Assembly: GCA_964385285.1 (NCBI GenBank)
Contig: CAYLOJ010000007.1
Coordinates: 1 to 61,462 of the forward strand
Direction: 5' to 3'
From: an uncultured Gammaproteobacteria bacterium
GTDB taxonomy: Bacteria > Patescibacteriota > Patescibacteriia > UBA9570
DNA: 61,462 nucleotides
A program made the position numbers and the translations under genes. Positions 11,775-49,665 of this stretch are shown in pieces. The notes under the pieces are model-generated. The model was not told the DNA's origin. It did no database searches and was given only the letters and a program-made list of their open reading frames with translations. Positions within the stretch are counted from its first letter, which is position 1, and each line of letters starts with the position of its first letter.

Positions 11775-11792
11775 CTGTCTGGTGCACTGGTA

Positions 11793-12015: not shown

Positions 12016-12025
12016 TGGTCATACG

Positions 12026-12093: not shown

Positions 12094-12096
12094 AGC

Positions 12097-12402: not shown

Positions 12403-12423
12403 AATAGCTCCGTGAGCCCCAGC

Positions 12424-15159: not shown

Positions 15160-15213
15160 GGGTTGGTGATGGTCCGCGGCGGCAATAGATATAGCCGCGG
15201 ACCATCTCCTCCA
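15160..15213 (-). other. Cassette-D 3' module: UGGAGGA, perfect 13-bp hairpin, ACCAAC
   Basis: GGAGGA at 15207-15213. GAUGGUCCGCGGC / GCCGCGGACCAUC stem at 15168-15206. Confidence 0.55.
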
Positions 15214-15591: not shown

Positions 15592-15640
15592 GTGTCACCA
15601 GGGTAAAGTCCGCTGTACAAGGCAGTTAGCAGACCGGTCA

Positions 15641-25230: not shown

Positions 25231-26358
25231 TCAGCGGGTCAGGATCTTGGCCTGAACATCGCGATCAACGACGAACCCACGTTCGTCACCGTCGCAACCG
25301 ATGCCACCCCAACAGGCATACACCTGCTCGCGGAGCACCGCCAGACGGAACTCTTCGATCTTCTCGAAGTCCCACTCGATGTGGTAATCGTTGCCGACCT
25401 TGATCACCCGACCGAGCGGCGGATCCCATCGATCGACGCAGCCGACGATCCGCAACTCCTCCCCCACCTTGATGAGGGCGAATAGACGAAAGCCGGCCCG
25501 ACACCACTGCGTGCGGTTCGGCACGTGCCACTCCGGAGAGAGCCACGGGAGGACCTGTTCGATCCCCGCGTCCCCGACATCCTCGGACATTCCGAAATAC
25601 AGCGGGGTATGCTGGAAGCTCGCACAGAGCTCCGCGAGGTAGCCGTAGAAGCGGACGATGTCGTCACGCTCCAGCTCGTAGCTGGTCAGCTTCGGATCGC
25701 GCCGGAAATTGGCCAACGCGTTGAAGCGGCACACATCTACACCGTTGTTGAGGCAAAACTCAGCCATCTTCTGCAGGTTTTCACGCGTCAGGTTCCGCTT
25801 GTGGAACGTGAAGGTGAGAATGATCTGCAGTTGATGTCCGGTCCGTGCCCGCCAGGCGCAGATGTTCTCAACGGCCGTGCGAATGACACGACCCGGGGTG
25901 ACGCCACGGAACACGATCGGCGTGTCCGCGGCGTCGTGCGCCGTGATCGTGATCGCACGGTAGCCGAGCTGCCAGCCACGATCGAGACGATCCTCCCAGC
26001 CGGGCTGAGTGAGGATGCGACCCGCGGACCAGGCCGCAAAGCCGTTCTCCTCCACCCGGAAGGCGGAGCCACCCTCATCCGCCAGCAACGCTTCATCGGC
26101 GAAGCTATCGGCGAGGATGTACGAGATGTCGTACCCCTGCCGGTGCAGCGAGTGAACAATCTGCATCGCCTCTTTCCGCGGCACCTCGTACGGCGCCTCG
26201 TTGAAGAAGTAACAGTGCTCACAAGCGGCCTGACAGGTCTTCTTCCCCACCGTGTTCGCGGCGTGGAAGTAGATGGTGATGTCCTGCGGGCGCAACTGCC
26301 CGAACGGGACGTTAAAGTCGACCGGCGGGAAGCAGCGCAGAGTCTTTAGAGCCATCAT
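25231..26358 (-). CDS. GC-rich radical SAM enzyme (subfamily unassigned)
   Basis: CQAACEHCY is the CX3CX2C motif followed by an aromatic residue. About 63% GC in a hand-counted sample. SD CUGGAGG. Antisense and alternative-frame ORFs are judged spurious. Confidence 0.75.
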   Translation of the reverse strand: MMALKTLRCFPPVDFNVPFGQLRPQDITIYFHAANTVGKKTCQAACEHCYFFNEAPYEVPRKEAMQIVHSLHRQGYDISYILADSFADEALLADEGGSAFRVEENGFAAWSAGRILTQPGWEDRLDRGWQLGYRAITITAHDAADTPIVFRGVTPGRVIRTAVENICAWRARTGHQLQIILTFTFHKRNLTRENLQKMAEFCLNNGVDVCRFNALANFRRDPKLTSYELERDDIVRFYGYLAELCASFQHTPLYFGMSEDVGDAGIEQVLPWLSPEWHVPNRTQWCRAGFRLFALIKVGEELRIVGCVDRWDPPLGRVIKVGNDYHIEWDFEKIEEFRLAVLREQVYACWGGIGCDGDERGFVVDRDVQAKILTR

Positions 26359-26507
26359 GTGGCCTCCAGATCTAGAGTTTCGAGATGAAAAGAGCTGACA
26401 GTAGAGACCTCCGGTGAAGCGAACTTCACCAGAGATTACTACTAACGTATTAGCACGTTAATACTCCGAAGAACGCACAATAAACCATTCTTGTTCGATG
26501 TTGTCAA
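26359..26507 (-). promoter_or_regulatory. Promoter plus ~115-nt structured 5' leader of the radical SAM gene
   Basis: TTGACA (26502-26507), 17 nt, TTTATT (26479-26484). The leader holds GGUGAAG-UUCG-CUUCACC (26413-26430) and a UAACGU/ACGUUA hairpin. Confidence 0.45.
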
Positions 26508-26559
26508 TAGTTGGAGATTTGGACATAAGAGTTGGAAGATAGATTTGAAATTAAGCTGC

Positions 26560-26700
26560 AAAAAATCCGCCAAGCGGCGGACGAAACGGGTAATGCTATT
26601 TGAGCTCGACTCAAACACCATCACCCACCCTATGGTGGTGACTATTCATATAGTTAGTGGAGAGATAGCGGGAATTCATATTCAAGTGTTTTAACGTATT
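26560..26700 (-). ncRNA. Candidate ~140-nt small transcript S1 (or mRNA for a 22-aa micro-ORF)
   Basis: Own promoter: TTGACA at 26730-26735, 17 nt, TATCTT. Terminator CCGCC-GCUU-GGCGG plus U6 at about 26560-26581. Contains ORF 26611..26679, MNSRYLSTNYMNSHHHRVGDGV, with no SD. Confidence 0.35.
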
Positions 26701-26802
26701 AAAACAAAGATACATCGGTTCCACTCCCCTGTCAATCTAGTTTTCCACAAGAACTGCTGGAAATAGAAGTGCCCCGATACAATGCGTCGGGGCAGCGCTG
26801 CA

Positions 26803-27042
26803 TCAGCAGGGATCGCGGAACTGCGTCCGTTCCACCGCGGGATAAGCCGCGATGTCCTGGTCGTAGTTCTGCATGAGGCGGAGAGCCAGGCCGCGAGCGT
26901 TCTGCTCGAGCCTGGCCAACCGCTTCGCCTTGCTGGTAGCCTTGATCTGCCGAAGCAGCTCAAGGTATTCACGCCACAGATCCGCAGGCGGCGGGGGCGG
27001 GGGCGGGGGCTTCCAACTCGCTACTGGACCGGTGCTAGGCAT
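26803..27042 (-). CDS. GC-rich 79-aa protein with a Pro8 tract and helical C-terminus
   Basis: ORF track. Strong SD AGGAGGAACCG before the ATG. Followed by a GCCCCGA/UCGGGGC hairpin. Confidence 0.55.
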   Translation of the reverse strand: MPSTGPVASWKPPPPPPPPADLWREYLELLRQIKATSKAKRLARLEQNARGLALRLMQNYDQDIAAYPAVERTQFRDPC

Positions 27043-27079
27043 CGGTTCCTCCTAAGAAAACGGGTGAAATCGCGACACC

Positions 27080-27121
27080 ACGCTAGCGCTACTTGACGCT
27101 TTTGTCAAGGCATATTAGAGT
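27080..27121. promoter_or_regulatory. Overlapping divergent promoters built on the palindrome CTTGAC-N6-GTCAAG
   Basis: Minus strand: TTGACA (27103-27108), 17 nt, TAGCGT. Plus strand: TTGACG (27093-27098), 17 nt, TAGAGT (27116-27121). Confidence 0.4.
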
Positions 27122-27198
27122 GTTCGCATGATTTTTGCAGGACTACTCTTAACCACTACCATTACCACAACACGGACATAACGTGGGTAGTTTGTTTA

Positions 27199-27235
27199 TA
27201 AAAAAACGATCGCCCACACAGGGCGATATTTTTTT
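27199..27235. terminator. Bidirectional rho-independent terminator
   Basis: AUCGCCC-ACACA-GGGCGAU hairpin (27209-27227) flanked by A8 and T7. Confidence 0.75.
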
Positions 27236-27347
27236 GCAGACTTCGTATCACCTACTAAAGACTCACATCAACTGCGCTGATTGTCCTGCGGGAGGGATTC
27301 CACTCTCCCCCAGAACCTGTCACGCGTAGTGACTGGAGGACGAGACA

Positions 27348-27539
27348 ATGTCTACGTATTACGGACAACTGATGGAAGCAGAGTTGGCGGTGCGTGGCCT
27401 GGGCCCTGATGGCAAGCCACTGCAGGGTGACCCAGACATGCATGGCGGCCACCCGGACGCAAGCCCGGACCCCGTGAAGCCGGCGGAAGGCTCGCCTCTG
27501 CCGGCGACGAACGAAGAAGAGGGCTACCACATGCCGTAG
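27348..27539 (+). CDS. GC-rich 63-aa acidic Pro/Gly-rich protein
   Basis: ORF track. SD UGGAGGA lies 7 nt upstream of the ATG. Preferred over the two antisense ORFs. Confidence 0.5.
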   Translation: MSTYYGQLMEAELAVRGLGPDGKPLQGDPDMHGGHPDASPDPVKPAEGSPLPATNEEEGYHMP

Positions 27540-32175: not shown

Positions 32176-32254
32176 ATAATATGTATTTAAGTACTCAATC
32201 GATGATGAAATACTATCCTTAGATAGTCATGAACGTCAACTGAAATTTACTTTA

Positions 32255-32320
32255 CACCTCCTGTATGAATCATACATGACCCTTACGGGAGGTGGGGCGA
32301 CGGCTTGAAAGCAGTCACCC
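32255..32320 (-). other. Structured 3' region of cassette H
   Basis: CACCUCC...GGAGGUG 7-bp stem (32255-32294) enclosing a UGUAUGA/UCAUACA palindrome and a CC-GUAA-GG hairpin. GGGGUGAC/GUCGCCCC hairpin at 32294-32320. Confidence 0.4.
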
Positions 32321-32354
32321 CGACAACACGATGGCAGCGACTGCTACTTGAACC

Positions 32355-32993
32355 CTACTGAGCGCTCATCATCCGGATGTACGCCACCTGCGCACCTTCG
32401 GCCGTCGGGTCAAAGGAGTAGGTGGCGGCGGTCGGAGCAACACTGCGCGTGGCAGAGATGCTCTTGGTTCGCATCGTGGACGAAGAAGCCGAGACGAGCT
32501 GGACGTGGTTGCGTCCCAACTGCTGCGACTCCCGCGCGACGATGTAGTTGAGCGCGAGGGTGTCGAGCGGAGTCCGGGAGTAGACCAGGTAGAGGTCCTC
32601 CTGGCCAAAGGGCGGGTTGATCTGCAGCGGGGAAGCTTCGGTACCGAACGGCACGGTACCTCCAGCGATAACGTAGTTGGACTCTCCGTCGTATGGAAAG
32701 ACCAGTGCCACGTTTGAAGCAGAGTCAACGTTGACGAGGTACACGTACCCCGTCTGCTGGATGGTCGCCACCATCCAGAGCTTCTCACCGTTGTGGAAGA
32801 TCCGCTCCGGATCCACAGCGCCGGACATCGTCTGGTAAGTGACAGTGGCAAGGTTGGTGGGTGCCTGGATCACACCGAGGCACTTCGCGCCGGGCGGACA
32901 CGCGTAAGCGGGCGTGACTGTGACAAGGGCGAGGAAGAAGACGACAAGGAGCAACCACTGGGGCAGTGTCTTGAAGTCATTGAAGGTAGACAT
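32355..32993 (-). CDS. GC-rich secreted protein, DUF4384-like
   Basis: Signal peptide ...LLLVVFFLALVTVTPAYA. GYVYLVNVDSASNVALVFPYDG resembles the DUF4384 core. Start set at the ATG at 32993; the track TTG is at 33011. Confidence 0.6.
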   Translation of the reverse strand: MSTFNDFKTLPQWLLLVVFFLALVTVTPAYACPPGAKCLGVIQAPTNLATVTYQTMSGAVDPERIFHNGEKLWMVATIQQTGYVYLVNVDSASNVALVFPYDGESNYVIAGGTVPFGTEASPLQINPPFGQEDLYLVYSRTPLDTLALNYIVARESQQLGRNHVQLVSASSSTMRTKSISATRSVAPTAATYSFDPTAEGAQVAYIRMMSAQ

Positions 32994-33040
32994 GGAATCT
33001 CGATTTGCCAACGCGCGTTGATGGCATCTAGGGTAGGGGT

Positions 33041-33200
33041 AAAAAAGGAATGGTCGCGCGCCAACAGTTAAGCATTGCTATGCCAGTCTGATGCAGCGCG
33101 GCCATTCATTTAGTAGCAGTCAGTTGTTAATGATCGTGTCTAAGCGTCGTTTCGGGAATTACTGTCTTCTGGAAGAAGATAAAATCACCAGCAAAAACGA
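33041..33200 (-). ncRNA. Terminated structured leader upstream of cassette H
   Basis: Starts after promoter P_H. CGUCGUUU/AAACGACG helix. Long GAAUGGCCGCGC / GCGCGCGACCAUUC stem followed by U6 (33041-33107), about 50 nt before the ATG. Confidence 0.4.
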
Positions 33201-33206
33201 CGTCAG

Positions 33207-33235
33207 ATGGTACCATGATTTTTCCACTTTGTCAA
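33207..33235 (-). promoter_or_regulatory. Sigma70-type promoter P_H
   Basis: TTGACA (33230-33235), 17 nt, TACCAT (33207-33212). Confidence 0.5.
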
Positions 33236-33255
33236 TGGCTAAGATAAACTAGTTT

Positions 33256-33320
33256 GTAGACTACTGTCTTCAGAATTTGAACCCTATTGTGCAGGCGTTG
33301 CGGCAGTGGCAACAAGTTTT
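33256..33320 (-). repeat. R repeat copy R1 (resembles a tRNA 3' half)
   Basis: Minus strand AAAACUUGUUGCCACUGCCGCAACGCCUGCACAAUAGGGUUCAAAUUCUGAAGACAGUAGUCUAC, followed by the palindrome AAACTAGTTT and the promoter. Confidence 0.7.
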
Positions 33321-33365
33321 AACTTCTTTAAGCTTACCCTTTAGTACTTTTCGTTATATGAATAT

Positions 33366-33863
33366 TCAGTATGTTAGGGCTTCAACAAGGGCCTTGCAAA
33401 AACGCTCTTGCCGCAACACAACACCCTTAGTATTGTGCCATGAACCGTCTCCAGGAATATATAACACGTGTTGACCATGCGCATCCCGATAGATCAGCTT
33501 TACTGCAACAGCGCTGCCATACGCAGTGATGATATGTTGAACGCTAGCAGAGACCACATCTGATTTATTGATACTAATGTTATCCATCGGCTGAAGAGCT
33601 GTGAACGTATAAACGCCCTTCATACAGGTAATACGTATATACCAGGGTGCAATAATTTTACGTCTAGTCGCGTACACAAAAAAAATGCCTAGCACAAACA
33701 TAACACCAACCCCTAACACACTGAGGGGCTCATCGCTACTAACAGGAATTTCTCCCTGAGCCCACAGCCAAATAAAACTACCAAATAATAGACTCATGAT
33801 AACAGGAAAAAATAAAATAATGCCTAGCCGGTCACGAGTTGAATGTCTCCTTTCAAATTGCAT
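33366..33863 (-). CDS. Hypothetical membrane protein (2 N-terminal TM helices)
   Basis: ORF track. Host-like GC. The ATG lies 9 nt after R2 with no promoter in between. Confidence 0.6.
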   Translation of the reverse strand: MQFERRHSTRDRLGIILFFPVIMSLLFGSFIWLWAQGEIPVSSDEPLSVLGVGVMFVLGIFFVYATRRKIIAPWYIRITCMKGVYTFTALQPMDNISINKSDVVSASVQHIITAYGSAVAVKLIYRDAHGQHVLYIPGDGSWHNTKGVVLRQERFCKALVEALTY

Positions 33864-33871
33864 ATAGTAAT

Positions 33872-33936
33872 GTAGATTCCTGTCTTCAGAATTTAAACCC
33901 TATTGTACAGGCATTGCGGCAGTGGCAGCAAGTTTT
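33872..33936 (-). repeat. R repeat copy R2
   Basis: About 85% identical to R1. Lies between hammerhead 1 and the 33863 ORF. Confidence 0.7.
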
Positions 33937-33950
33937 AGCCGGTTCAATTA

Positions 33951-34016
33951 TCCCCTTTCGTCCTTAATCTTGCGATCTAGACTCGTCAGTTTAGGCATTA
34001 CCTAAAGAGGGTGATG
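33951..34016 (-). ncRNA. Type III hammerhead ribozyme, copy 1
   Basis: Minus strand CCCUC^UUUAGG-UAAUG-CCUAAA-CUGACGA-GUCUAGAUC-GCAA-GAUUAAGGAC-GAAA-GGGG. All core nucleotides are present (CUGANGA, G10.1-C11.1, GAAA, A15.1-U16.1, C17). Stems I and II are loop-closed and stem III is open. Predicted cleavage between 34007 and 34006. Confidence 0.8.
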
Positions 34017-34101
34017 AGTGGGGCCTTGGGTTGCAGGAGACGTTGGAACGTTCGCCGCAACACACGTAGGTCCCACCCGCCCTCATACACCATCTGTCCT
34101 C
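34017..34101 (-). other. Conserved structured domain between the cassette-I stop and hammerhead 1
   Basis: Homologous to 36536-36610. Helix GUGGGACC/GGCCCCAC and inner ACGU-UCCA-ACGU hairpin. Confidence 0.5.
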
Positions 34102-34482
34102 TTACTGGCAGCTCACCTCCCAGCCACCGAACGGCTCAGCGGCTCCGATGATGAATGACGGTTCGGCCTCTGGTGCCTGCGGGCATTGCACCCGCCACTC
34201 GTCCGCGAGCGCCTTGGCCCGCTTGATACTGAGCGGCGGGTCCTGGAACGCCTCTTCACTCATCTGGGTGCCGAGTGAAGTGACATGACAGCGCTTGTCA
34301 CTGTGCTGCTTCCAGAACGCGCAGGCAGACCCCAGGTCGTACTTGACGGCCTTTCCATCAGGGCCGAGAGTCGACGAATTCTTCTGATAGAGTACGAATC
34401 CGCGGACTGCGTTATCGGCAGGCATAGCAGCCATGATGCTGAGAACGATGAGAAGAGTGAAGGCAGTCTTGAAAGTTCGCAT
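34102..34482 (-). CDS. GC-rich secreted 126-aa Cys-containing protein (cassette I)
   Basis: ORF track. N-terminal signal-like helix MRTFKTAFTLLIVLSIMAAMPA. Confidence 0.6.
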   Translation of the reverse strand: MRTFKTAFTLLIVLSIMAAMPADNAVRGFVLYQKNSSTLGPDGKAVKYDLGSACAFWKQHSDKRCHVTSLGTQMSEEAFQDPPLSIKRAKALADEWRVQCPQAPEAEPSFIIGAAEPFGGWEVSCQ

Positions 34483-34513
34483 GGGCGCCTTATCCAGGTG
34501 GTGAGAGATACCG

Positions 34514-34564
34514 TTCCACCTGCTTACAGCTGACTTCTAAAAAATCAGATCTAAGCAAGTGGAA
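34514..34564 (-). promoter_or_regulatory. Conserved 13-bp leader hairpin followed by CUCACCACCUGG, upstream of cassette I
   Basis: UUCCACUUGCUUA...UAAGCAGGUGGAA. Homologous to 37137-37186. Confidence 0.45.
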
Positions 34565-34591
34565 CGAGTAATGTATGAGGGTTGTAAAGAA

Positions 34592-34774
34592 CAAAAAACA
34601 GGCGGTTAGCCTGCGTTGTGGAATAGAGAATGAATGGTTGTTTGGCTCGTACGATTACCTCGTACAGTGTCACATTACCATAGGGAACGTGACCAAACCC
34701 ACTTCATAACTTTTCCATTCAGTTATGCTAGTAGTTACTTGAAGGTGCATGTTTTGAGGCATGTCCTCAAAAAC
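34592..34774 (-). ncRNA. Y-family structured leader/sRNA, copy Y2
   Basis: Promoter TTGACA (34804-34809), 17 nt, TATAGT (34781-34786). Four hairpins. Terminator CAGGC-UAACC-GCCUG plus U6 at about 34593-34613. Confidence 0.55.
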
Positions 34775-34817
34775 AGTGGCACTATACTCATGCATATGAG
34801 TTATGTCAAGAATTGCT

Positions 34818-34883
34818 GTAAACCACTGTATTCAGAATTTGAACCCCATTGTACAGGCGTTGCGGCAGTGGCAACAGGTTTTA
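34818..34883 (-). repeat. R repeat copy R3
   Basis: Lies directly upstream of the Y2 promoter. A 12-nt R-end fragment (AGAGUCUACAUA) also overlaps the stop codon at about 34929-34940. Confidence 0.7.
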
Positions 34884-34939
34884 CGGCCTGTATTGGCTTG
34901 ATTTAATAGCCACAGCATTTTTGGAGAATTATGTAGACT

Positions 34940-36250
34940 CTATGACTGCATTGGATACTTAGCCATGAACGCTTCTAACTCGGCAGATAATTTAGCTTGT
35001 TCGGCCTGTAAACGTGTGTGTTCAGCCTGAGCTTGATCTAGCTCGTCGCCATATTGGTTTAAGTGGGGATCAATTGCTTTTTGAAAATCTGCATGTCTAG
35101 CCGCTTGATCGTGTGCCTGGTACTGGCCACGTGGCAAGTTATGTTGCCAAATGTTTTTCTCTACCCGCGATACTTGAAACCAACCAATGGCAGCACCTGC
35201 CGCTGCCCCTAACGCAGCCATTGGAATGTTTGGTTCACCAGTCTGCCCCACGTTGTACATGACACCCGCCATGCCCATAATGCCAGCAGTACCTAAAGTG
35301 ATATGCGCTACCTTTAACATTTCCCAAATTTGATGAGCAGTTACCCGTAATTGAATAGAGGCATCTCTTGCATCATAGGCATGTTGGCGAGCTGCTAAAT
35401 ACTGCTCAGCATCTTCTGCATCTACCGCTAATTCAAAATATTGTGCCAGCAATTCATTCAAGCGTTGGCCAGCCGTACGTATCTGTTCAATTAAGTTGGT
35501 CACTGCTGGTTCGGGTTCGTTGACTGCAGGTTGGCGCGGATCTTTGAATTTCACGTTACCATCACTCCCCAACCGATCAATTTCTAACTCTATCTCATGA
35601 ATTTCTTCTCGCAAAGATCGTAACTCTTCAGTCAGAGTAGTAATTTGTAGATTGCGATTTTCTGGAGTACCAGCGCGTTGTTCCGCCCGGCGTTGTTTGG
35701 CAGCTCGATAGCGTTCTAATTCTGGGTACTGAGCAAACCAACGCTCAGAATAATCGTGAGATTCCTCCATACGCGACAAACCAAATTCCACCGCTGAACC
35801 AGCCATGGCCCCACCAGCTGTGGCCAACGCTGTCATGGCAGGATCCTTAGTGAGCATATACGCTCCAGCACCAACACCAGTGCCTATAATTGAACTAGAA
35901 GTAACGTAACGTGTTACTGCCCAAGCCAGTTTAGCTGCTTTAGCTTTTATCTCGGCAAAACGTTGAGAATTTTGATTAAGTTGTTCAAGTGCTTGAATAC
36001 TGCGTTCTGCTCCTTCCTGAGCTTGCAACAATTTATAGTAGTGACTTAAGGCACTATCAAATTTTCGACCTGATTCTGCTAAATAGTCCAAATAGGCCTT
36101 TAAGGTTTCTGGAGTGGCTTCACCTTGGAATTCTAAAAGATTTTTAGCATGCTCTTCAGGTTGATGGTTAGGCAACGCAACCTTTGGTTCCAAATGGACT
36201 ATCGGTTCCGGTGGACGACGAAAGGGTTGACGAGTACGTTCAATACTCAT
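34940..36250 (-). CDS. Hypothetical coiled-coil protein with two glycine-zipper membrane segments
   Basis: ORF track. GTGVGAGAY...GGAMAGSAV and GTAGIMGMAGV...LGAAAGAAIGW. Confidence 0.6.
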   Translation of the reverse strand: MSIERTRQPFRRPPEPIVHLEPKVALPNHQPEEHAKNLLEFQGEATPETLKAYLDYLAESGRKFDSALSHYYKLLQAQEGAERSIQALEQLNQNSQRFAEIKAKAAKLAWAVTRYVTSSSIIGTGVGAGAYMLTKDPAMTALATAGGAMAGSAVEFGLSRMEESHDYSERWFAQYPELERYRAAKQRRAEQRAGTPENRNLQITTLTEELRSLREEIHEIELEIDRLGSDGNVKFKDPRQPAVNEPEPAVTNLIEQIRTAGQRLNELLAQYFELAVDAEDAEQYLAARQHAYDARDASIQLRVTAHQIWEMLKVAHITLGTAGIMGMAGVMYNVGQTGEPNIPMAALGAAAGAAIGWFQVSRVEKNIWQHNLPRGQYQAHDQAARHADFQKAIDPHLNQYGDELDQAQAEHTRLQAEQAKLSAELEAFMAKYPMQS

Positions 36251-36251
36251 A

Positions 36252-36416
36252 TTAGGATTGTGTGGATCTTAGTTGAGCTTGGATATCATCAGAAAAAGAT
36301 TCGATGTCCTGGTTCAGTTGTTGAAAGGCTAATTTCACTTCTGCAGGAGAAGCTTTACCCTGAGCGATTTTCTCGCACAAGTCATCAAAGTTTAATGGAG
36401 TATTATCATTCGCCAT
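36252..36416 (-). CDS. 54-aa hypothetical protein, translationally coupled to the 36250 ORF
   Basis: Hand-translated MANDNTPLNFDDLCEKIAQGKASPAEVKLAFQQLNQDIESFSDDIQAQLRSTQS. Its TAA stop lies 1 nt before the next ATG. Confidence 0.45.
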   Translation of the reverse strand: MANDNTPLNFDDLCEKIAQGKASPAEVKLAFQQLNQDIESFSDDIQAQLRSTQS

Positions 36417-36431
36417 AAATAGATATAGACA

Positions 36432-36459
36432 ATTTTAGCAGATTTTAGGAAAAAATCAA
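36432..36459 (-). promoter_or_regulatory. Candidate promoter for the 36416 operon
   Basis: TTGATT, 16 nt, TAAAAT, immediately downstream of hammerhead 2. Confidence 0.4.
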
Positions 36460-36470
36460 GCGCAAATGAT

Positions 36471-36535
36471 TCCCTTTCGTCCTTGATCTTGCGATCTAGA
36501 CTCGTCAGTTTAGGCATTACCTAAAGAGGGTGATT
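36471..36535 (-). ncRNA. Type III hammerhead ribozyme, copy 2
   Basis: Same core as copy 1. The single stem II difference (GAUUAAGGAC to GAUCAAGGAC) converts a G-U pair to G-C. Predicted cleavage between 36526 and 36525. Confidence 0.8.
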
Positions 36536-36610
36536 GAGTGAAACCTTGGGTTGAAGCTGACGTTGGAACGTCACCAGCAACACACTTAGGTTCCACTCGC
36601 CCCTCATACA
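36536..36610 (-). other. Conserved structured domain between the cassette-J stop and hammerhead 2
   Basis: GUGGAACC/GGUUUCAC replaces GUGGGACC/GGCCCCAC of copy 1 (compensatory). GCUG/CAGC replaces GCGG/CCUGC. Confidence 0.5.
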
Positions 36611-37108
36611 CTAGTACCGCATGCACACCTGCGCCGTCAGCTCTTCACAGTTCGCAACGTGTGAATCTGGAGTACTCGCGAGACACTGTTCGTACAGGTA
36701 TCGAGTAGCGACGGGGGTGCACAGAGTGGTTGGATCGAACTGTTCGTAGTCCGACCACGGAGCCATGATCGGCCACTCATCCCACTTCGTTGGCATTCGA
36801 CCCAACTGCAGCGCGCGCCAGTTGCAGTTCGACTCGAGTGCGAGAAGTTTGATACTGGCACCCTGGGTATTCATCAGAATGACCTGCATCTGCTCCTCGT
36901 CACACAAAGGCGGCGGGTGCAATGTAGCGTCCATTTCCGTGAGCATGTACCGGAAGAGATCGGACATCGCCCGCTCTCTATCAAGTGACAACTCGAGCTT
37001 GTGAATCTTCTTGGCCTGCTCGATGAGCGCGTCCTGCTTTCGATGAGCGCACCCGCTGCTCAGGAGGATGATGAGGAGGACGACGATGGTCTTCAGCTGT
37101 GTGTACAT
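36611..37108 (-). CDS. GC-rich lipoprotein, 165 aa (cassette J)
   Basis: Lipobox LLSSGC. Seven further Cys. SD GGGAGAG. Confidence 0.65.
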   Translation of the reverse strand: MYTQLKTIVVLLIILLSSGCAHRKQDALIEQAKKIHKLELSLDRERAMSDLFRYMLTEMDATLHPPPLCDEEQMQVILMNTQGASIKLLALESNCNWRALQLGRMPTKWDEWPIMAPWSDYEQFDPTTLCTPVATRYLYEQCLASTPDSHVANCEELTAQVCMRY

Positions 37109-37136
37109 TTGTCTCTCCCAGGTGGTGAGATTAGGG

Positions 37137-37186
37137 TTCCACCTGCTTACAACTGACTTCGTAAAATCAGCTCAAAGCAGATGGAA
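37137..37186 (-). promoter_or_regulatory. Conserved leader hairpin followed by CUCACCACCUGG, upstream of cassette J
   Basis: Homolog of 34514-34564. The downstream UCUCACC...GGGAGAGA could sequester the SD. Confidence 0.45.
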
Positions 37187-37212
37187 CAGATAGTGTATGA
37201 AGGTTGTAAAGA

Positions 37213-37401
37213 ACAAAACAGCAGGTGTTTCACCTGCTTTCACATTACGATTGATTGTACTCATCTAGACCTCTTTACAGGCAACGCGATTAACTCGCGC
37301 GGTACTACGCCACCATAGGGGGTGTAGTCGAACCCACTTGAACCTGTGTTCAAGTTGTTTCTAGAAAGTGCATGTTTTTACAGATGTGTATTCTGTAAAA
37401 A
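37213..37401 (-). ncRNA. Y-family structured leader/sRNA, copy Y3
   Basis: Promoter TTGACA (37431-37436), 17 nt, TACCAT (37408-37413). Terminator GCAGGUG-AAA-CACCUGC plus U-run at about 37214-37237. Confidence 0.55.
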
Positions 37402-37460
37402 CGCGCCATGGTACACCAAAATACATGTTTTGTCAAGACCTAATAGACACTGCTTTGTAT

Positions 37461-37525
37461 GTAGACTCTGTCTTCAGAATTTGAACCCTATGGTACAGAC
37501 GTTGAGGAAATGGCGGCAGGTATTA
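37461..37525 (-). repeat. R repeat copy R4 (most diverged)
   Basis: ...ACGUCUGUACCAUAGGGUUCAAAUUCUGAAGACAGAGUCUAC, upstream of the Y3 promoter. Confidence 0.6.
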
Positions 37526-37573
37526 GTATTCACTAGCTCTATTCACCTCTATTGAGATGAACACAGTATGCGT

Positions 37574-37602
37574 GAGAAGGGGGTAGCTCTTCTCGTCCTC
37601 CA
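37574..37602 (-). other. Cassette-L 3' module: UGGAGGA plus hairpin
   Basis: GGAGGA at 37596-37602. GAGAAG/CUUCUC stem at 37574-37594. Preceded by the CGCACAU/AUGUGCG hairpin. Confidence 0.45.
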
Positions 37603-37660
37603 ATGTGATTTGCGCACATCTACCCCTGGATCATGGAATGATCAATGTGCGACTAGATCT

Positions 37661-38203
37661 CTACTTCCGCCGGCGGAATCCAAACAGCGGGAAGAGCAGC
37701 GTTGCTGCGAAAGTAATACCTTGATTACATCCTCCGCACTCGACAGAATCCTTGTCGTCTCCCGTATCGCTCTCCCCAGAATCGATCTCGACCGACTGGG
37801 TGTAGAGGTTCACGCTGGTGCCGTCGACGAAAACCGCGAGGGTCGAATCCCGGTTTCCCTCCAACCAGGCCTCGTAGAGGCTCTCGGGGATGTACGCCGT
37901 GAACTCGTCACCGGTCAGGTCATAGTCGAAGTCCTCCCGCCCGTTGGGGAAGAGATCCGACTCACTGGCCCACGTGGACAGCCATTCGTAGTTGCAGACC
38001 TCATCGCCGTCGTCGAGCAGGAAGTTGTACACGACCTGGATTGAGTCGTAGCCGCTTGGGCTCTCGACGCCCGGGGTGAACGAGTTGGCATCGACCACGA
38101 TGGCGGTCGCCGACTCGCAGAATGCGTCGTTTGAGCCGTCGGCTCCCATGGTGTAGTCAGCGTCATCGGCGAGTGCTGCCGACAGGAACAATGAAAACAA
38201 CAT
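37661..38203 (-). CDS. GC-rich secreted acidic protein with a MYXO-CTERM/GlyGly-CTERM-like sorting tail (cassette L)
   Basis: Start moved to the ATG at 38203 (MLFSLFLSAALA signal peptide, SD UAGGAGAG). C-terminus ECGGCNQG-ITFAATLLFPLFGF-RRRK. Confidence 0.6.
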   Translation of the reverse strand: MLFSLFLSAALADDADYTMGADGSNDAFCESATAIVVDANSFTPGVESPSGYDSIQVVYNFLLDDGDEVCNYEWLSTWASESDLFPNGREDFDYDLTGDEFTAYIPESLYEAWLEGNRDSTLAVFVDGTSVNLYTQSVEIDSGESDTGDDKDSVECGGCNQGITFAATLLFPLFGFRRRK

Positions 38204-38316
38204 CACTACTCTCCTACTACTTCTGCTGGAACATTCCAGCAGCCAAGCAACTTTTCGAGTTACGAGGACTAAATAGACTATCGCGTAATCTATTCCATCC
38301 CAGTAATTCGACAAAC

Positions 38317-38460
38317 AAAAAAGACCCTTACTGGGTCATTTCCTAAAAACCTCTTCATCAGAGGGAACAACGACCGGATGGTCTTTTGTTTTGAGTGTTG
38401 TTAACGGAGTGCAGCCTAGCTCCGTCTCGTTACGTAACGAGATTAAATTTTCAATGAGGC
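38317..38460 (-). ncRNA. W-family structured leader/sRNA, copy W2
   Basis: Hairpins UCUCGUUAC/GUAACGAGA, CGGAG/CUCCG, AACAAC...GACC-AUCC-GGUC...GUUGUU and CCUCU-GAUGA-AGAGG. Terminator GACCC-AGUAA-GGGUC plus U6. Confidence 0.5.
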
Positions 38461-38464
38461 CAAC

Positions 38465-38493
38465 AGGTTAAGGCAAAATGTGATTTTTGTCAA
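38465..38493 (-). promoter_or_regulatory. Sigma70-type promoter of W2
   Basis: TTGACA (38488-38493), 17 nt, TAACCT (38465-38470). Confidence 0.45.
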
Positions 38494-38513
38494 TAGGTAA
38501 CGTAAACTAGTTT

Positions 38514-38578
38514 GTAGACTACTGTATTCAGAATTTGAACCCTATTGTGCAGGCATTAAGGCAGTGGCAGCAAGTTTT
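38514..38578 (-). repeat. R repeat copy R5
   Basis: It occupies exactly the position that the tRNA-Glu 3' fragment occupies in the W1 unit. Confidence 0.7.
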
Positions 38579-38602
38579 ACAGTTCGTAAACTGAATATAA
38601 AA

Positions 38603-38630
38603 ACAAAAAACACCAGCGAATGACTGATGT
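38603..38630 (-). terminator. Rho-independent terminator of cassette K
   Basis: CAUCAG-UCAUUCG-CUGGUG plus U6. Confidence 0.6.
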
Positions 38631-38673
38631 TTTTTGGGGTGGGTATCTTCTTTCTGCTCGATATGAATCGGCA

Positions 38674-38716
38674 GTGGTGAGATACCAGCGACCCTTACGG
38701 ATCTAACCTATCCTCC
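38674..38716 (-). other. Cassette-K 3' module: CGGAGGAUA, GUAA-tetraloop hairpin, CACCAC
   Basis: GGAGGA at 38711-38716. GAUCC-GUAA-GGGUC at 38690-38703. CACCAC at 38674-38679. Confidence 0.45.
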
Positions 38717-38732
38717 GAATCCTAACATGAAG

Positions 38733-39266
38733 CTATGGGCAGGTATGTCCATCATCGACGTTACCGTCGCAGTCATCATCGATGCCGTCGCAGTTCTCGT
38801 CGGGGGCACCAGGGTGAATTGCTGCGTTGGTGTCATCGCAGTCACTGGAACCAAGCGCGTAGCCCTCGGGGGGCTCGGCCGCACAAAAGTAGTCCCCTGT
38901 CCCTGCTCCGTAACCATCTTCATCCAGGTCCGGATAATAGATGGTCTGGCCGGTCAGCGTTCCCGGCCCCTCGTCTTCGTCGATGGCCCCGTCACAATCG
39001 TTGTCGATGCCATCGCAGGCCTCGGAATCTTCGGGACTCCTTCCACCATAGACGTCATCACGATCATCATCGCAGTCATCGTCATTGGTGACGTATCCTG
39101 CCGGGACGGGGTCACCACCACAGGCCTCCCAGATTTCCCGGGGATCACCACGACCATCGCCATCGAGATCGGCATACCAGGTTTTTGTAGGGTCGCCGCA
39201 ACCCGTATCGTTTTTTACAACGTTGACTGTGCATGCAAGAAGACCGAGGAGTAGAACGAGCAACAT
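38733..39266 (-). CDS. GC-rich lipoprotein with MopE-type putative metal-binding Cys/Asp repeats (cassette K)
   Basis: Lipobox LGLLAC. Two repeats of the form DCDD...PGAPE.CDGIDNDCDG preceded by DLDGDG(Y/R)G. Confidence 0.75.
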   Translation of the reverse strand: MLLVLLLGLLACTVNVVKNDTGCGDPTKTWYADLDGDGRGDPREIWEACGGDPVPAGYVTNDDDCDDDRDDVYGGRSPEDSEACDGIDNDCDGAIDEDEGPGTLTGQTIYYPDLDEDGYGAGTGDYFCAAEPPEGYALGSSDCDDTNAAIHPGAPDENCDGIDDDCDGNVDDGHTCP

Positions 39267-39437
39267 GTACTTCTCACAAAGACGTCCTAAACCGTCCCCT
39301 ATTTTTCAAGCGTTGTGGACTAGCTGTTCAGGCAGCTATTTTTAGCACTACTGGTTGCTACTAAAACTAAAGTCCTGACTGTATCCCTAAACATACAGAG
39401 ATAAAGTTAGAACGTTACTTTAAGAAACTAGGCAATA

Positions 39438-39581
39438 AAAAAAGACCCTTACTGGGTCATTTCCTAAAAACCTCTTCATCAGAGGGAACAACGACCGGAT
39501 GGTCTTTTGTTTTGAGTGTTGTTAACGGAGTGCAGCCTAGCTCCGTCTCGTTACGTAACGAGATTAAATTTTCAATGAGGC
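39438..39581 (-). ncRNA. W-family structured leader/sRNA, copy W1
   Basis: Part of a ~203-bp direct repeat (39438-39640 versus 38317-38519) with only 3 mismatches, all in the promoter spacer. Confidence 0.5.
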
Positions 39582-39585
39582 CAAC

Positions 39586-39614
39586 AGGTTAATCCAAAAT
39601 GTGGTTTTTGTCAA
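39586..39614 (-). promoter_or_regulatory. Sigma70-type promoter of W1
   Basis: TTGACA (39609-39614), 17 nt, TAACCT. Confidence 0.45.
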
Positions 39615-39634
39615 TAGGTAACGTAAACTAGTTT

Positions 39635-39654
39635 GTAGCCCCACAGGGAATCGA
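39635..39654 (-). repeat. 20-nt duplicate of the tRNA-Glu 3' end (att-like direct repeat)
   Basis: gtagccccacagggaatcga is identical to 39793-39812. It cannot fold as a tRNA on its own. Confidence 0.8.
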
Positions 39655-39750
39655 CCACTCCGCCCAATTCAGAAATTGGGCTCCGGGCCGGGGCTTGTGC
39701 TCGTCTGTCACTGACAGCCGTGCTCGCCCGTTCGATTCCTCCACGAACCA
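39655..39750 (-). other. Orphan GC-rich fragment without an ORF, carrying a GGAGGAA + hairpin module
   Basis: Minus strand GUGGAGGAAUCGAACGGGCGAGCACGGCUGUCA-G-UGACAGACGAGCAC... It lies between the two copies of the tRNA 3' end. Confidence 0.4.
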
Positions 39751-39751
39751 C

Positions 39752-39792
39752 AAAAAAATAAAAACCCCACGGATGTGGGATTTTTATTTTTC
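39752..39792. terminator. Bidirectional terminator after tRNA-Glu
   Basis: CCCAC-GGAU-GUGGG hairpin (39766-39779) flanked by A- and T-runs. Confidence 0.7.
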
Positions 39793-39793
39793 G

Positions 39794-39865
39794 TAGCCCC
39801 ACAGGGAATCGAACCCTGGTTTGAGCGCTGAGAACGCTCCGTCCTAACCGTTAGACGATGAGGCC
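39794..39865 (-). tRNA. tRNA-Glu(CUC)
   Basis: 72-nt cloverleaf folded by hand: GGCCUCA/UGGGGCU acceptor, GUCU/GGAC D stem, GAGCG-UUCUCAG-CGCUC anticodon arm, 4-nt variable loop, CAGGG-UUCGAUU-CCCUG T arm. CCA is not encoded. Confidence 0.85.
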
Positions 39866-39964
39866 AAAAAATGCTTCGCTATTGTATCCGACTTTACAAT
39901 ACAATTCAAGATCAACTGTTCCATCGCAATGACAAATGGCAAAAAATGTGAGATAATTCTGCAT

Positions 39965-41332
39965 ATGAATATACATGAACGCCCAGCTACACGTCATCAT
40001 AACGATAGCGAAGAAGTCAAAGTGCTTAATCAGGTGGAAGGCCAACCCTCTGATGATACCGGAGAAGTTGCCCCTGATCTGAACGATACAGAAACAGCTC
40101 CGGACCATGCCGAAACACTGGCTCAAATCGAACAAATCCAATCCTTGCTGGAACGACAAAAACAACAAGTCAGTAAAGAACGTGGCGCGTTTGGTCGTCT
40201 AGTTTCGCTATTTAAAGAGAAGATCATGCGGACGGATTCTGAAGAAAAGAAACTGTCTAGCAAGATCTCTGCCTTAGAGCAATGGCGTAATAAGTTACTC
40301 GCCGATCCATCCGACACTGGTTCTGCTCGTGAATTCCTCAAACTCAATCATAGTAATGAACTGCTTGCTACAAGTGATCATGATCGCCGGTCAGATCGTC
40401 TGGCTACTACTCTATTAGAACGAGCAGCTACCGCTGGCAATGTGCTCGATGAAGGTGAGGCAAACCGTGCTGCCGAACTCATAGCCAAAGAAGAAGATGA
40501 AATTGCTGCCCGTTTTTTTGATGAAGGTGATGAGCTGAATAAACAGGCTGAATTGGAACAGACTCTACAAGAACGTACAACGAGTGCCTATAAAGAAAAA
40601 TTAGCCTCTATCCAACCATCCGTTGAGGCCAAGATTGCCGCACTACAACAAGCTGCTGAAGATGACCGTGAGATTAATTCTGAATTAGCTGAATTGTCAC
40701 GCTCTAAAGATGGTAGGCTGATCCATAGAGATCGTGTGGTTGAGACATGGTTTAACCTAGGCACCGCGATGAATTTAGACAGTGAAATTGAACAAGCCAA
40801 AAAACCACTGACCAAGTTATACCAAGAACAACTGCACAAAGGTGCTAAATCTATGCGTGCTCAAATGAAAGCCTTTGAAGGCTTATTAAGCGGACGCTTT
40901 AGTATCAGCAAGTTTTCTGGAATTATCGAACAGGTGCGACGCGAATTAGGACCAGGTTTAGTCATCGATAAATCGATGCGTGATAGTGCCGATGCTGATC
41001 TGGCTGGTATGCGCATTAAAGATCGCTTAGAACGCATGCAAAAAACCTTACCGACAGAGATTAAAAGTTTGCTACAACATAAAGATACCGTTGAATTATA
41101 CAGCCTAGGTGGTGGAGATATTGGCGCGATCGACGGACAGACGGTCGTAACCATTCCAAGTGAACTACTAGCAAAATGCGCTATTGATGCCGGTGAAGTA
41201 GATCGACTACTCCCCTCTTCATTGGAAGATTTACAAAACTACGCTCGTCAGCCAGACAAGGATGTGCTTGCTGAACTAGCAGCTGCAAATCAGCAGGATC
41301 TATCCGGCTATCAAGATAAAGAAGTGGCATAG
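39965..41332 (+). CDS. Hypothetical coiled-coil protein
   Basis: ORF track 39929..41332. Start tentatively placed at MNIHERP. Confidence 0.55.
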   Translation: MNIHERPATRHHNDSEEVKVLNQVEGQPSDDTGEVAPDLNDTETAPDHAETLAQIEQIQSLLERQKQQVSKERGAFGRLVSLFKEKIMRTDSEEKKLSSKISALEQWRNKLLADPSDTGSAREFLKLNHSNELLATSDHDRRSDRLATTLLERAATAGNVLDEGEANRAAELIAKEEDEIAARFFDEGDELNKQAELEQTLQERTTSAYKEKLASIQPSVEAKIAALQQAAEDDREINSELAELSRSKDGRLIHRDRVVETWFNLGTAMNLDSEIEQAKKPLTKLYQEQLHKGAKSMRAQMKAFEGLLSGRFSISKFSGIIEQVRRELGPGLVIDKSMRDSADADLAGMRIKDRLERMQKTLPTEIKSLLQHKDTVELYSLGGGDIGAIDGQTVVTIPSELLAKCAIDAGEVDRLLPSSLEDLQNYARQPDKDVLAELAAANQQDLSGYQDKEVA

Positions 41333-47955: not shown

Positions 47956-49665
47956 TTAGTTCTGTAAATCGGCAGCGGATAAGGCCTGATCTTTGAGTGC
48001 TGTATTGGGTGGCACCATTGGAAAGATATTCTGATGTGGGTCAACCTGGAATGCGATCAAGGTTGGTCCGTTCACAGCCCGCGCTGCAGCAATCGCCTCT
48101 TCCATTTCTGCAGGCGTATGGGCTCGCCATGCTGGAATACCAAAGGCGGCTGCTAATGCTACAAAATCCGGATTCTTCAAGTGCACACTCGAATAGTTTT
48201 GGTCATAGAGTAAAGCTTGCCATTGATGGACCATGCCTAAGACACCATCCTCCATAATAGCCATATGCACCGGCACATGGTGCTCTGCCAGGGTTGCTAA
48301 CTCTTGCACGTTCATCATAAAACCACCATCGCCTGAAATGGACCATACCTCACGCTTCGGATTACCAAATGCGGCGCCCATTGCAGCGGGCACACCATAA
48401 CCCATCGAACCTAACCCGCCCGAGGATAAATGGCTATGCGATTGCGCAAAACGATAATACCGAGCTATCCACATCTGATGACGACCCACATCACTGCCAA
48501 TAATTGCTTGCCCCTGCGTTGCGCGTGAGATTGCATCTACCACCTGTGCCTGACTTAAGAACGATCCTGTATATTCTGGTAGCTGCAGAAAATGATATTG
48601 CTCTTTCAAAGCGGTTAGGCGTTCCCACCAGGCAGCATAGTGATGTTCTCCTAAGATGCGGTTGGCCTGCATTAAGCTGACCTTGAGATCCCCTACAACT
48701 GGTACCGCTGTCGGCACAATTTTGCCAACTTCTGACGGATCAATCTCAAAATGTACAAAGGTAGTGTCTTGGATAAATTCTGCAACCCGCCCAGTGATAC
48801 GATCATCAAACCGAGAACCGATACTAATGACCACATTGGCTTCCGCTACTGCATAGTTGGTCGCTGCCTCACCGTGCATACCTAGCATCCCCATCCACAA
48901 GGGATGTGCTTGAGGAAAACAACCCATTCCCAAAATGGTATTCACCACCGGGATCTGATGACGCTCTGCAAAGGCTAATAATTCTGCCTCAGCACCGGCT
49001 AATTCTACTCCGTGCCCAGCAATGATAATTGGTTTGGCATCAGGTTGATCAAGCACTGACTGTATTTTTTCAATGGCGGCATCACTAGCGGCCACACTGA
49101 CACGTTCTGAATAGCCAGGTAACTGCGGCACCGCCGGTAATGTGATCTCTGGCGCCGTCTGCATCCAGACATCTTTTGCAAAATCAATATGCACGGGACC
49201 AGGCCGACCAGTCCGGGCAATGTAAAAGGCAGCCTGCATGACCACCTGCACATCACTAGCTCGATTGACGAAATAGCTATGTTTAACAGCCGGCAGTGTC
49301 ATACCAATCACATCGGTTTCTTGAAATGCATCCGTTCCAATTAAGGCGTCGGTTACTTGGCCAGTAATATAGACAACCGGGACAGAATCCATCATGGAAT
49401 TCTCCATGGCTGTCAATAAATTCGTCGCACCAGGACCAGAGGTACCCAGGGCTACTCCGACTTTACCGGTAGAGCGTGCATAACCGTCTGCAGCGAATCC
49501 ACCACCTTGTTCCTGCTTCGGTAAAATGTGTTTAAAGTGTTTAGCATATTCCGGGCGATTAATATAATCGTAGAGTGGCAATACTACACCACCCGGGATA
49601 CCAAACATGACGTCGACCCCTTCCCGAATTAGAGCTTCACAAAATAGTTCAGCACCAGTTTTCAT
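47956..49665 (-). CDS. ilvB: Acetolactate synthase large subunit
   Basis: ThDP enzyme motifs (GGLGSMGYGVPAA..., SGDGGFMMN). Start at the ATG at 49665, giving an ATGA overlap with the ridA stop. Confidence 0.92.
   Translation of the reverse strand: MKTGAELFCEALIREGVDVMFGIPGGVVLPLYDYINRPEYAKHFKHILPKQEQGGGFAADGYARSTGKVGVALGTSGPGATNLLTAMENSMMDSVPVVYITGQVTDALIGTDAFQETDVIGMTLPAVKHSYFVNRASDVQVVMQAAFYIARTGRPGPVHIDFAKDVWMQTAPEITLPAVPQLPGYSERVSVAASDAAIEKIQSVLDQPDAKPIIIAGHGVELAGAEAELLAFAERHQIPVVNTILGMGCFPQAHPLWMGMLGMHGEAATNYAVAEANVVISIGSRFDDRITGRVAEFIQDTTFVHFEIDPSEVGKIVPTAVPVVGDLKVSLMQANRILGEHHYAAWWERLTALKEQYHFLQLPEYTGSFLSQAQVVDAISRATQGQAIIGSDVGRHQMWIARYYRFAQSHSHLSSGGLGSMGYGVPAAMGAAFGNPKREVWSISGDGGFMMNVQELATLAEHHVPVHMAIMEDGVLGMVHQWQALLYDQNYSSVHLKNPDFVALAAAFGIPAWRAHTPAEMEEAIAAARAVNGPTLIAFQVDPHQNIFPMVPPNTALKDQALSAADLQN

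Follow-up and report, generated by a model that had tools for sequence, protein, structure and literature searches.

A conserved, structured unit beside tRNA-Glu(CUC) and a candidate second landing site for serine recombinase elements in a wastewater Patescibacterium

The window analysed here is a stretch of 61,462 nt (contig CAYLOJ010000007.1 of assembly GCA_964385285.1) from a wastewater Patescibacterium near Kerfeldbacteria, and it carries a tRNA-Glu(CUC) gene whose 3' end is repeated 158 bp away. A preliminary description, made from the letters alone, read the repeat as the attL/attR signature of integration into a tRNA 3' end around a minimal or decayed cassette. We consider it reasonably probable that the 158-bp unit beside the tRNA gene (unit 0) is instead an old, conserved module that supplies a second attachment arm of the chromosome-side (B) type, as opposed to the element-side (P) type, and that mobile DNA enters at either B-type arm. 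The evidence comes from the conservation and structure of the unit, from the junctions of large serine recombinase (LSR) elements at tRNA-Glu in relatives, and from the spacing of a T-loop-like motif in the repeats.

The 20-mer GTAGCCCCACAGGGAATCGA was found by pattern search in two exact copies on the plus strand (39635-39654 and 39793-39812), which lie in direct orientation, 158 bp apart from start to start and with 138 bp between them; with the flanks included, the repeat is 28 nt long at 89% identity (repeat family D18). A third copy was not found across the window with up to 3 mismatches allowed, and 0.00 matches are expected from shuffles. The tRNA-Glu(CUC) gene occupies 39793/4-39865 of the minus strand according to both ARAGORN and Rfam (Rfam tRNA model, 55.7 bits), and within it the 20-mer starts at T55 of the T-loop, takes in the discriminator base and extends one base beyond. 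The repeat is not an assembly artefact, because a 261-nt Logan contig of sequencing run X1 spans 39609-39869 with zero differences and a run X5 contig obtained in a different study spans 39635-40095; the exact duplication described earlier is confirmed by these independent contigs. The 138-bp spacer holds a bidirectional terminator, a GC-rich stretch of ~95 nt, two hairpins and the plus-strand string GTTCGATTCC...ACGAACCA at 39730-39751, which reads GTGGTTCGTGGAGGAATCGAAC along the tRNA strand. It has no open reading frame (ORF) beyond one mechanical 63-aa frame, and neither ARAGORN nor the Rfam tRNA model found a second tRNA in the window. The features of this region are the following.

39794-39865, minus strand: tRNA-Glu(CUC) gene; its last 20 nt and one further base (39793-39812) form copy 1 of the 20-mer, the B-type arm (ARAGORN, Rfam, LSR junction in L091 and L092).
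39752-39792, no strand: bidirectional intrinsic terminator directly after the tRNA, made of an A-tract, the stem CCCAC/GTGGG at 39766-39779 and a T-tract (terminator scan).
39730-39751, plus strand: inverted degenerate copy of the tRNA 3'-end arm, GTTCGATTCCTCCACGAACCAC, the left arm of a 115-nt imperfect palindrome (sequence, relatives, fold).
39699-39723, no strand: extended hairpin GCACGG-CTGTC-AGT-GACAG-ACGAGC, read on the minus strand (fold, two compensatory pairs in relatives).
39662-39681, no strand: 8-bp hairpin GCCCAATT/AATTGGGC (fold).
39635-39654, minus strand: copy 2 of the 20-mer (named J0), a probable second B-type arm at whose outer edge the array begins (pattern search, spacing, X5 fusion at 39635, orthologues in L089 and L090).

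Relatives of the window organism were located via GAPDH, whose gene has tRNA-Glu(CUC) downstream of it, immediately so in the closest relatives. The nearest GAPDH among GTDB species representatives is 61% identical, and a large protein collection holds relatives at 98, 93, 92 and 88-85% identity, the named ones being Kerfeldbacteria or Patescibacteria; the metagenomes that hold the window are from wastewater and sludge only, and an exact-protein look-up of three window proteins gave no record. Fourteen contigs were fetched, and tRNA-Glu(CUC) is present in 13/14 (L094 stops short of the tRNA). After ...GGGGCTAC, the end of the tRNA, these 13 loci show eight distinct continuations.

Unit 0 is orthologous in two of these relatives, L089 and L090, in which the 20-mer occurs again at +156 and +167 (copies at L089:11302 and L090:11465). 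In the interior of the unit, the window and L089 agree at 87.5% identity, as against 81% for GAPDH DNA. L088, whose GAPDH protein is the same as that of L089, has lost ~100 nt, including the 20-mer copy, between ACAGC microhomologies. The unit is absent from L093 and from more distant relatives, with the L093 boundary exactly at ...CTAC. The outer edge of the second copy is the point at which conserved sequence gives way to variable sequence in the window, L089 and L090 alike, and the second copy was rightly taken as the proximal boundary of the island, since the variable array starts there.

The unit is also conserved in structure. Its left palindrome arm (39730-39751), conserved in L088, L089 and L090, agrees in register with the reverse complement of the 20-mer arm at 14/25 positions, GGAATCGAAC included (hand count); the right arm is the second 20-mer, which in the predicted folds pairs with the left arm and encloses the two hairpins. 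The units of the window, L089 and L090 are predicted to form the same three-way fold, though the L090 interior is largely different. The terminator stem is fully re-paired in both relatives (CTCACC..GGTGAG in L089, CCCACG..CGTGGG in L090). In the hairpin at 39699-39723, two base pairs are changed in a compensatory way in L089: G:C is replaced by A:T, and T:A by C:G. The X5 strain shares the latter change, as T39708C paired with A39714G. The hairpin at 39662-39681 is altered in its loop alone in L089, with the stem retained, and L090 has other hairpins there. Because the compensatory changes are non-synonymous in the sole frame shared with L089, selection appears to act on structure and not on coding, and a coding-region remnant was rejected as an origin of the unit on the same ground. 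A dispersed miniature inverted-repeat transposable element was rejected as well, there being no further copies in the window or in ~100 related loci. No Rfam family was found for unit 0, the array repeats or the leaders described below, and unit 0 has no similarity to any fetched element.

Judging from the orthologous units in L089 and L090, the conservation above that of GAPDH DNA and the compensatory changes, the idea of a minimal or decayed cassette is not supported. Nor is the GGAGGAA-plus-hairpin signature, which had been noted as common to this unit and the ends of the GC-rich ORFs, a conserved one: it occurs in the window, but the units of relatives read TTGAGGAAT, TTGAAGAAT and TTGAGAAAT at this point, and GGAGGAA itself sits in the inverted arm. 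The duplication stands in L089 and L090 with different DNA behind it, and in L090 this DNA consists of ordinary-looking genes without array repeats, which comes close to the duplication without an island that the preliminary description had named as speaking against its own reading.

The tRNA 3' end is used by mobile DNA, as had been proposed, and the junctions identify the elements concerned. L090 and L091 are 99.4% identical through the last tRNA base and then diverge: L090 lacks an LSR element, whereas in L091 and L092 one is inserted exactly after the tRNA end ...GGGGCTAC, and both contigs end inside the element. The comparison of empty and occupied tRNA-Glu sites suggested earlier bears out integration at the tRNA in these strains, but the 20-nt duplication is also found where the array is absent. 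The LSR of L091 and L092 is a protein of 517 aa with Resolvase, Recombinase and Zn_ribbon_recom domains; its gene is antisense to the tRNA, and the final 12 codons and the stop lie inside the tRNA gene (...SLVAPQGIEPWFER and stop). The family has 982 homologs at E <= 1e-40, the named ones from Patescibacteria, and in 7/7 contigs obtained for another two members, tRNA-Glu is overlapped by the LSR 3' end. Scans of viral contigs with the LSR and with the core of the array repeat gave no matches.

An element of this family is also joined to the second copy. Over 39635-40095 the X5 contig agrees with the window at 98% identity. It departs from the window exactly at 39635, beyond which it reads CATCGATTTCCGGGTCACTTTTTC, matching the start of the L091 element at 21/24 positions. 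Across this point it encodes EKVTRKSM/VAPQGID, the counterpart in L092 being EKVTRKSL/VAPQGIE. As would be expected of an attB site, an LSR element is thus found joined both at the tRNA copy (L091 and L092) and at the second copy (X5).

Leftward from the second copy extends an array of 7.4 kb. Units 1 to 5 each close with a repeat of ~65 nt that ends ...(C/T)TAC; we label the repeats that close these five units J1-J5. The features of the array are the following.

32250-39634, minus strand: six units of 1121, 1053, 2643, 946, 616 and ~1000 bp without a recombinase, most with a GC-rich ORF for a small secreted protein (sequence, repeats, Pfam, composition).
39423-39634, minus strand: left end of unit 1, 96% identical to 38302-38513 at the start of unit 2; a TTGACA promoter-like site at 39614-39609 is followed by ~150 nt of structured leader and by a terminator at 39458-39444 (family D3, terminator scan).
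38514-38580, minus strand: J1, P-arm relic (LSR 3' tail, attP form) that closes unit 1; the plus strand reads VDYCIQNLNPIVQALRQWQQVL, like the L083 LSR tail, with the motif 26 nt from the junction (families D1/D2).
37461-37526, minus strand: J2, degenerate P-arm relic that closes unit 2 (family D2, junction table).
34818-34884, minus strand: J3, P-arm relic that closes unit 3 (family D2).
33872-33938, minus strand: J4, P-arm relic that closes unit 4 (family D2, translation).
33256-33322, minus strand: J5, P-arm relic that closes unit 5 (family D2, translation).

The nature of the J repeats became apparent from another lineage (L081, L082 and L083), which was reached by a metagenome scan with the core of the array repeat; three of the seven matches to this core (L084-L086) were set aside as chance matches. 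In L081, tRNA-Glu(UUC) is followed by an 11.3-kb element, a J-like repeat and the tRNA's own terminator, in this order, and the element carries an LSR, a tyrosine recombinase, a type III restriction-modification system, SocA and AbiV. In L083 this element forms a circular contig of 11 kb, the ends of which overlap exactly over 127 nt. At its junction the J-like repeat is followed by CAAAGAGG, and the joining of the J-like repeat to the LSR end is the attP arrangement. In L082, at the same tRNA locus as in L081, the element is replaced by a 0.8-kb one-ORF unit plus a J-like repeat. The L081/L083 lineage displays an attP/attL/attR trio. J3 is 92% identical to the J-like arms of L081 and L083 over 40 nt. 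The plus strand of the J repeats translates as VDYC(L/I)QNLNPIVQALRQWQQVL, and the LSR of the circular L083 form ends in ...SSLVDHCIQNLNPIIQDIQKWYEYLGQIKYSKI and stop; the J repeats are therefore relic LSR 3' tails as in attP, or P arms, left at the far end of integrated elements. Readings of the J repeats as tRNA-like RNAs or attC-like hairpins were rejected, as the repeats form no consistent stems and translate to the LSR tail. In run X2, one J-type arm is joined to ATTCCAACTTCAACCCTAAACCC, which is the sequence after the second copy in L090, and another J to tRNA-terminator-like sequence.

The LSR gene crosses the att site in L083 (6262-7872, minus strand), L081 (83-1618, minus strand) and L092 (4083-5636, minus strand). 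Its product is 536 aa long in the circular L083, with a J-coded tail, and 511 aa (L081) or 517 aa (L092) in the integrated form, with a tail read from tRNA-Glu antisense. Since the frame spans the att site, integration swaps the C-terminus of the recombinase, and this swap could help to control its direction or stability. A tyrosine recombinase gene lies right beside the LSR gene in L081 (1964-3088, minus strand), L102 (8546-9700, plus strand) and L103 (4696-5850, plus strand), the products of the latter two having Phage_int_SAM_1 and Phage_integrase domains. A 3.7-kb unit without a recombinase is found between tRNA-Glu(CUC) and a J-type arm, VDYCMQNLNPIVQVLREW, in a Kerfeldbacteria metagenome-assembled genome (GCA_016182495.1; L095:11165-14885); it carries a small ORF beside an AbiEii toxin gene, a 567-aa ORF and DUF5674, and in view of the toxin gene, defence cargo travels in such units too.

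The two kinds of arm differ in spacing. From the start of the T-loop-like motif TTCRAWTYC to the junction there are 21 nt in the tRNA arms, with J0 in register, as against 26 nt in J1, J3-J5 and the arms of L081 and L083 (25 in J2), and this difference holds in both lineages. The same 5-bp offset is established for serine integrases, in which the distal motif is nearer to the crossover in attB sites than in attP sites (Rutherford et al., 2013; PMC3783163). Because its spacing is that of the tRNA arm, the second copy is best regarded as a B-type arm and not as a P-type far-end scar, and the attL/attR pair of the preliminary description does not fit this recombinase family.

We therefore favour the following scheme, parts of which are necessarily conjectural. 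The tRNA-Glu(CUC) 3' end, TCGATTCCCTGTGGGGCTAC, would serve as a B-type half-site for LSR integrative elements distributed across Patescibacteria, with strand exchange probably at or beside the final ...CTAC. Unit 0, which consists of the bidirectional terminator and the 115-nt imperfect palindrome directly after the tRNA, would be an old module inherited vertically. Elements would enter at the tRNA itself (L091 and L092) or at the second copy (the X5 strain and the window array). Each would leave at its far end a P-type arm. Since the LSR gene crosses attP, this arm is the gene's 3' tail; J1-J5 would be five such relics, and the window array would have grown outward from the second B arm. The unit presumably arose once, by an integration-type or duplication event immediately after ...CTAC, in an ancestor shared by the lineages of the window, of L088/L089 and of L090, and its second copy may go back to a tyrosine-recombinase scar, to a decayed tandem or convergent tRNA, or to an inverted or direct duplication around the terminator. 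It may have been kept as a landing pad, in which an inserted LSR gene would gain a reading frame, a stop codon and a terminator before the tRNA, and which would spare the tRNA gene antisense transcription.

Several points weigh against this scheme. Entry at the second copy is seen in a single 486-nt contig of X5, 24 nt of which are element sequence. The scar that an LSR insertion leaves at its far end cannot be of the B type, and the inverted arm is split from the tRNA arm by the terminator. Canonical serine integrases require both halves of attB. Here the sequence to the right of ...CTAC differs at every junction, no matching right half-site (B') was found beside the crossover, and the in-register inverted arm lies ~43 nt away, behind the terminator; this variation of the right half is not explained by a docking-site model. 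No recombinase gene was detected in the window by Pfam searches, which covered the ORFs of 22-41 kb, and no excision or empty-site joints were found at 4-6x depth in the two runs holding the window organism. The fold z-scores are modest (-1.3 to -3.1), and the covariation comes from three or four sequences. Both the benefit of a landing pad and the shielding of the tRNA are speculation. We would also give a rather small share of probability to a variant in which the pad is a decoy maintained by the host that diverts LSR elements from the tRNA and provides their att-spanning recombinase gene with a tail, stop codon and terminator, or in which the palindrome is a folded, attC-like site for cassette capture at the tRNA end.

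A classical scar seems to us unlikely. In this reading, an island of the tyrosine-integrase type, with a 20-bp copy of the tRNA 3' end, would have integrated through the T-loop and then been lost almost entirely; the rebuilt tRNA would be attL, the displaced original 3' end would be attR, and the 138 bp would be what is left of the island. Such a scar would account for an identity block that runs from the T-loop to the tRNA end, as in islands with a T-loop crossover, and for the occurrence of ...CTAC on both sides of a unit that L093 lacks at exactly that boundary; a tyrosine recombinase gene is present in the LSR elements too, and remnants and partial tRNAs beside island tRNAs are a known pattern (10.1101/2020.12.28.424599). 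An intact tRNA at the boundary and a repeat of 20/20 nt are indeed present, but no integrase or fragment of one is detectable in the unit. Moreover, decaying filler would not be expected to stay more similar between species than GAPDH DNA and to show compensatory changes, the tRNA's only terminator lies in the unit, and the recombinase that uses the tRNA site is of the serine type, which needs no long identity block.

Still less probable, in our judgement, is an origin from pseudo-tRNA remnants kept by chance or by recombinase use, with the second 20-mer derived from a tandem tRNA and GTTCGATTCC...ACGAACCA from a convergent tRNA that shared the terminator. Both fragments begin at the T-loop, and the inverted one is plausible as T-loop, T-stem, acceptor and discriminator. 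The minus strand of 39637-39695 gives a weak match to the mascRNA model (21.5 bits, E = 0.07), and the sequences AGCCCC and GGGGCT, which lie close to its 5' and 3' ends respectively, can pair with each other. This acceptor-like pairing is, however, lost in L090, neither fragment has a T-stem partner, and ARAGORN and Rfam found no second tRNA here or in 20 related loci.

We likewise assign a low probability to a 115-nt palindrome that is functional by itself, as a small RNA, a processing or anti-termination signal or a folded single-stranded DNA site like attC, with the 20-mer as a stem strand. The same three-way fold in three lineages despite the replaced interior of L090, the two compensatory pairs, the plus-strand fold (z = -2.6) and the cassette-like array that begins at the edge are all consistent with such a function. 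Against it, there is no conserved promoter on either side, a minus-strand copy would lie behind a strong terminator, the sole RNA contig ends at the edge of the unit, no Rfam match was obtained, and integron-type core sites and an integron integrase are missing. Finally, a chance repeat or an assembly artefact, for which nothing speaks, is refuted by the expectation of 0 matches, the independent spanning contigs and the orthologous units in other assemblies.

The scheme of a conserved second arm may be compared with several known systems. In the tycheposons of Prochlorococcus, the older parts of an island are displaced outward by newcomers, partial att repeats build up together with degenerate elements, close strains differ in content, and some elements use an LSR (Hackl et al., 10.1101/2020.12.28.424599). 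The window locus likewise grows beside a tRNA, with partial att repeats and strain-variable content; close relatives carry differing cargo at tRNA-Glu, and L091 and L092 have LSR elements there. It differs in that the recombinase at tRNA-Glu is always an LSR with its gene across the att site, the array repeats are LSR-tail P-arm relics and not partial tRNAs, the window units are 0.6-2.6 kb long and have no recombinase, and the partial-tRNA unit is conserved across species. With the sites of the A118/LI, Bxb1 and phiC31 integrases (PMC3783163) the locus shares short sites without a long identity block, the 5-bp offset and a recombinase gene beside attP; here, however, a tRNA 3' end is targeted, the right half is apparently free to vary and the LSR frame crosses the site, so that integration swaps the C-terminal tail. 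Tyrosine-integrase tRNA islands (Islander definition, PMC4383910) also combine an intact tRNA with a direct copy of its 3' end from the T-loop, whereas here there is no integrase between the copies, and the 138 bp are conserved and structured and not foreign.

Integron arrays resemble the window array in their small, mostly one-ORF, co-oriented units that end in a conserved repeat, and the proximal unit here folds as an imperfect palindrome. The window units, however, carry their own promoters, and the J repeats are coding relics and not hairpins; an attC-like palindromic fold is found for unit 0 in three lineages but not for the J repeats. There are no RYYYAAC/GTTRRRY core sites in unit 0 or the J repeats, and no integron integrase among the ORFs of 22-41 kb. 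The cis-mobilizable elements (CIMEs) beside ICESt1 and ICESt3 of Streptococcus thermophilus are att-flanked units without a recombinase that accrete next to an integrative element. Like them, the window has tandem att-bounded units without a recombinase, which in principle could be movable in trans; recombinase class and target are different.

Other observations concern the array and its surroundings. A 216-nt repeat heads units 1 and 2 (39423-39638 and 38302-38517, 96% identical), with four hairpins and a terminator upstream of the ORF; its transcript would start GGCCUCAU, like tRNA-Glu. The TTGACA hexamer at 39614-39609 was read from the sequence and was not flagged by the consensus promoter scan, and one metatranscriptome contig covers 39491-39641. 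This head repeat may act as a cis-regulatory leader or encode a small RNA. Units 3 and 4 have a common promoter and 5' leader (33946-34082 and 36465-36602), up to ~10 nt before the start codon, and a common tail (34513-34764 and 37136-37387), from within ~15 nt past the stop codon, whereas the ORFs enclosed by them (165 aa and 126 aa), though both GC-rich and provided with lipoprotein or secretion signals, are unrelated; this looks like an exact ORF swap within a fixed frame. ORF-sized patches of 56-64% GC stand out from a genome of ~45% GC, in the array at 32355-33011, 34102-34482, 36611-37108, 37661-38314 and 38733-39266, and elsewhere in the window at 1844-2242, 11313-12415, 15163-15606 and 25231-27530. 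Those of the array encode small secreted proteins (MopE-type metal-binding motif, DUF4384, unknowns), and the GC excess could stem from foreign DNA or from a special mutational process.

On the other side of the tRNA, a 467-aa ORF (39929-41332, plus strand) lies between GAPDH and tRNA-Glu; it has no Pfam match, looks coiled-coil by eye and is unrelated to the 436-aa protein. The gap from GAPDH to the tRNA is just 75-230 nt in L088-L093, and the ORF represents a second insertion, located 5' of the tRNA; its start is found in the X5 strain as well. Away from this locus, the 42-nt GC-rich repeat GTGGTGCGTACAGGCCGGGCGGGAATGTGATTCCCCGCGCCG occurs at 11188-11229 and 11715-11756 (527 bp apart, 95% identity), with a weak third copy at 49116-49157.

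Island growth next to a tRNA, partial att repeats and strain-variable content are already known. What appears new, on the sequence evidence, is a Patescibacteria-wide LSR family that targets tRNA-Glu, a recombinase frame that crosses the att site, tiny units without a recombinase and a conserved, structured second landing site. Our literature searches found no paper describing the tRNA-Glu LSR system, which is no proof of absence. Patescibacteria (the Candidate Phyla Radiation) have almost no genetic tools, and their gene exchange is poorly known. From sequence, this locus defines an LSR family of about a thousand relatives together with its chromosomal target and its element-side site, and thereby a possible integration tool. 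For annotation, it teaches that a tRNA-end repeat beside an island need not mean a recent insertion and may, as here, be part of an old docking site. It also shows how a hypervariable array of genes for small secreted proteins is assembled beside one tRNA in a reduced genome.

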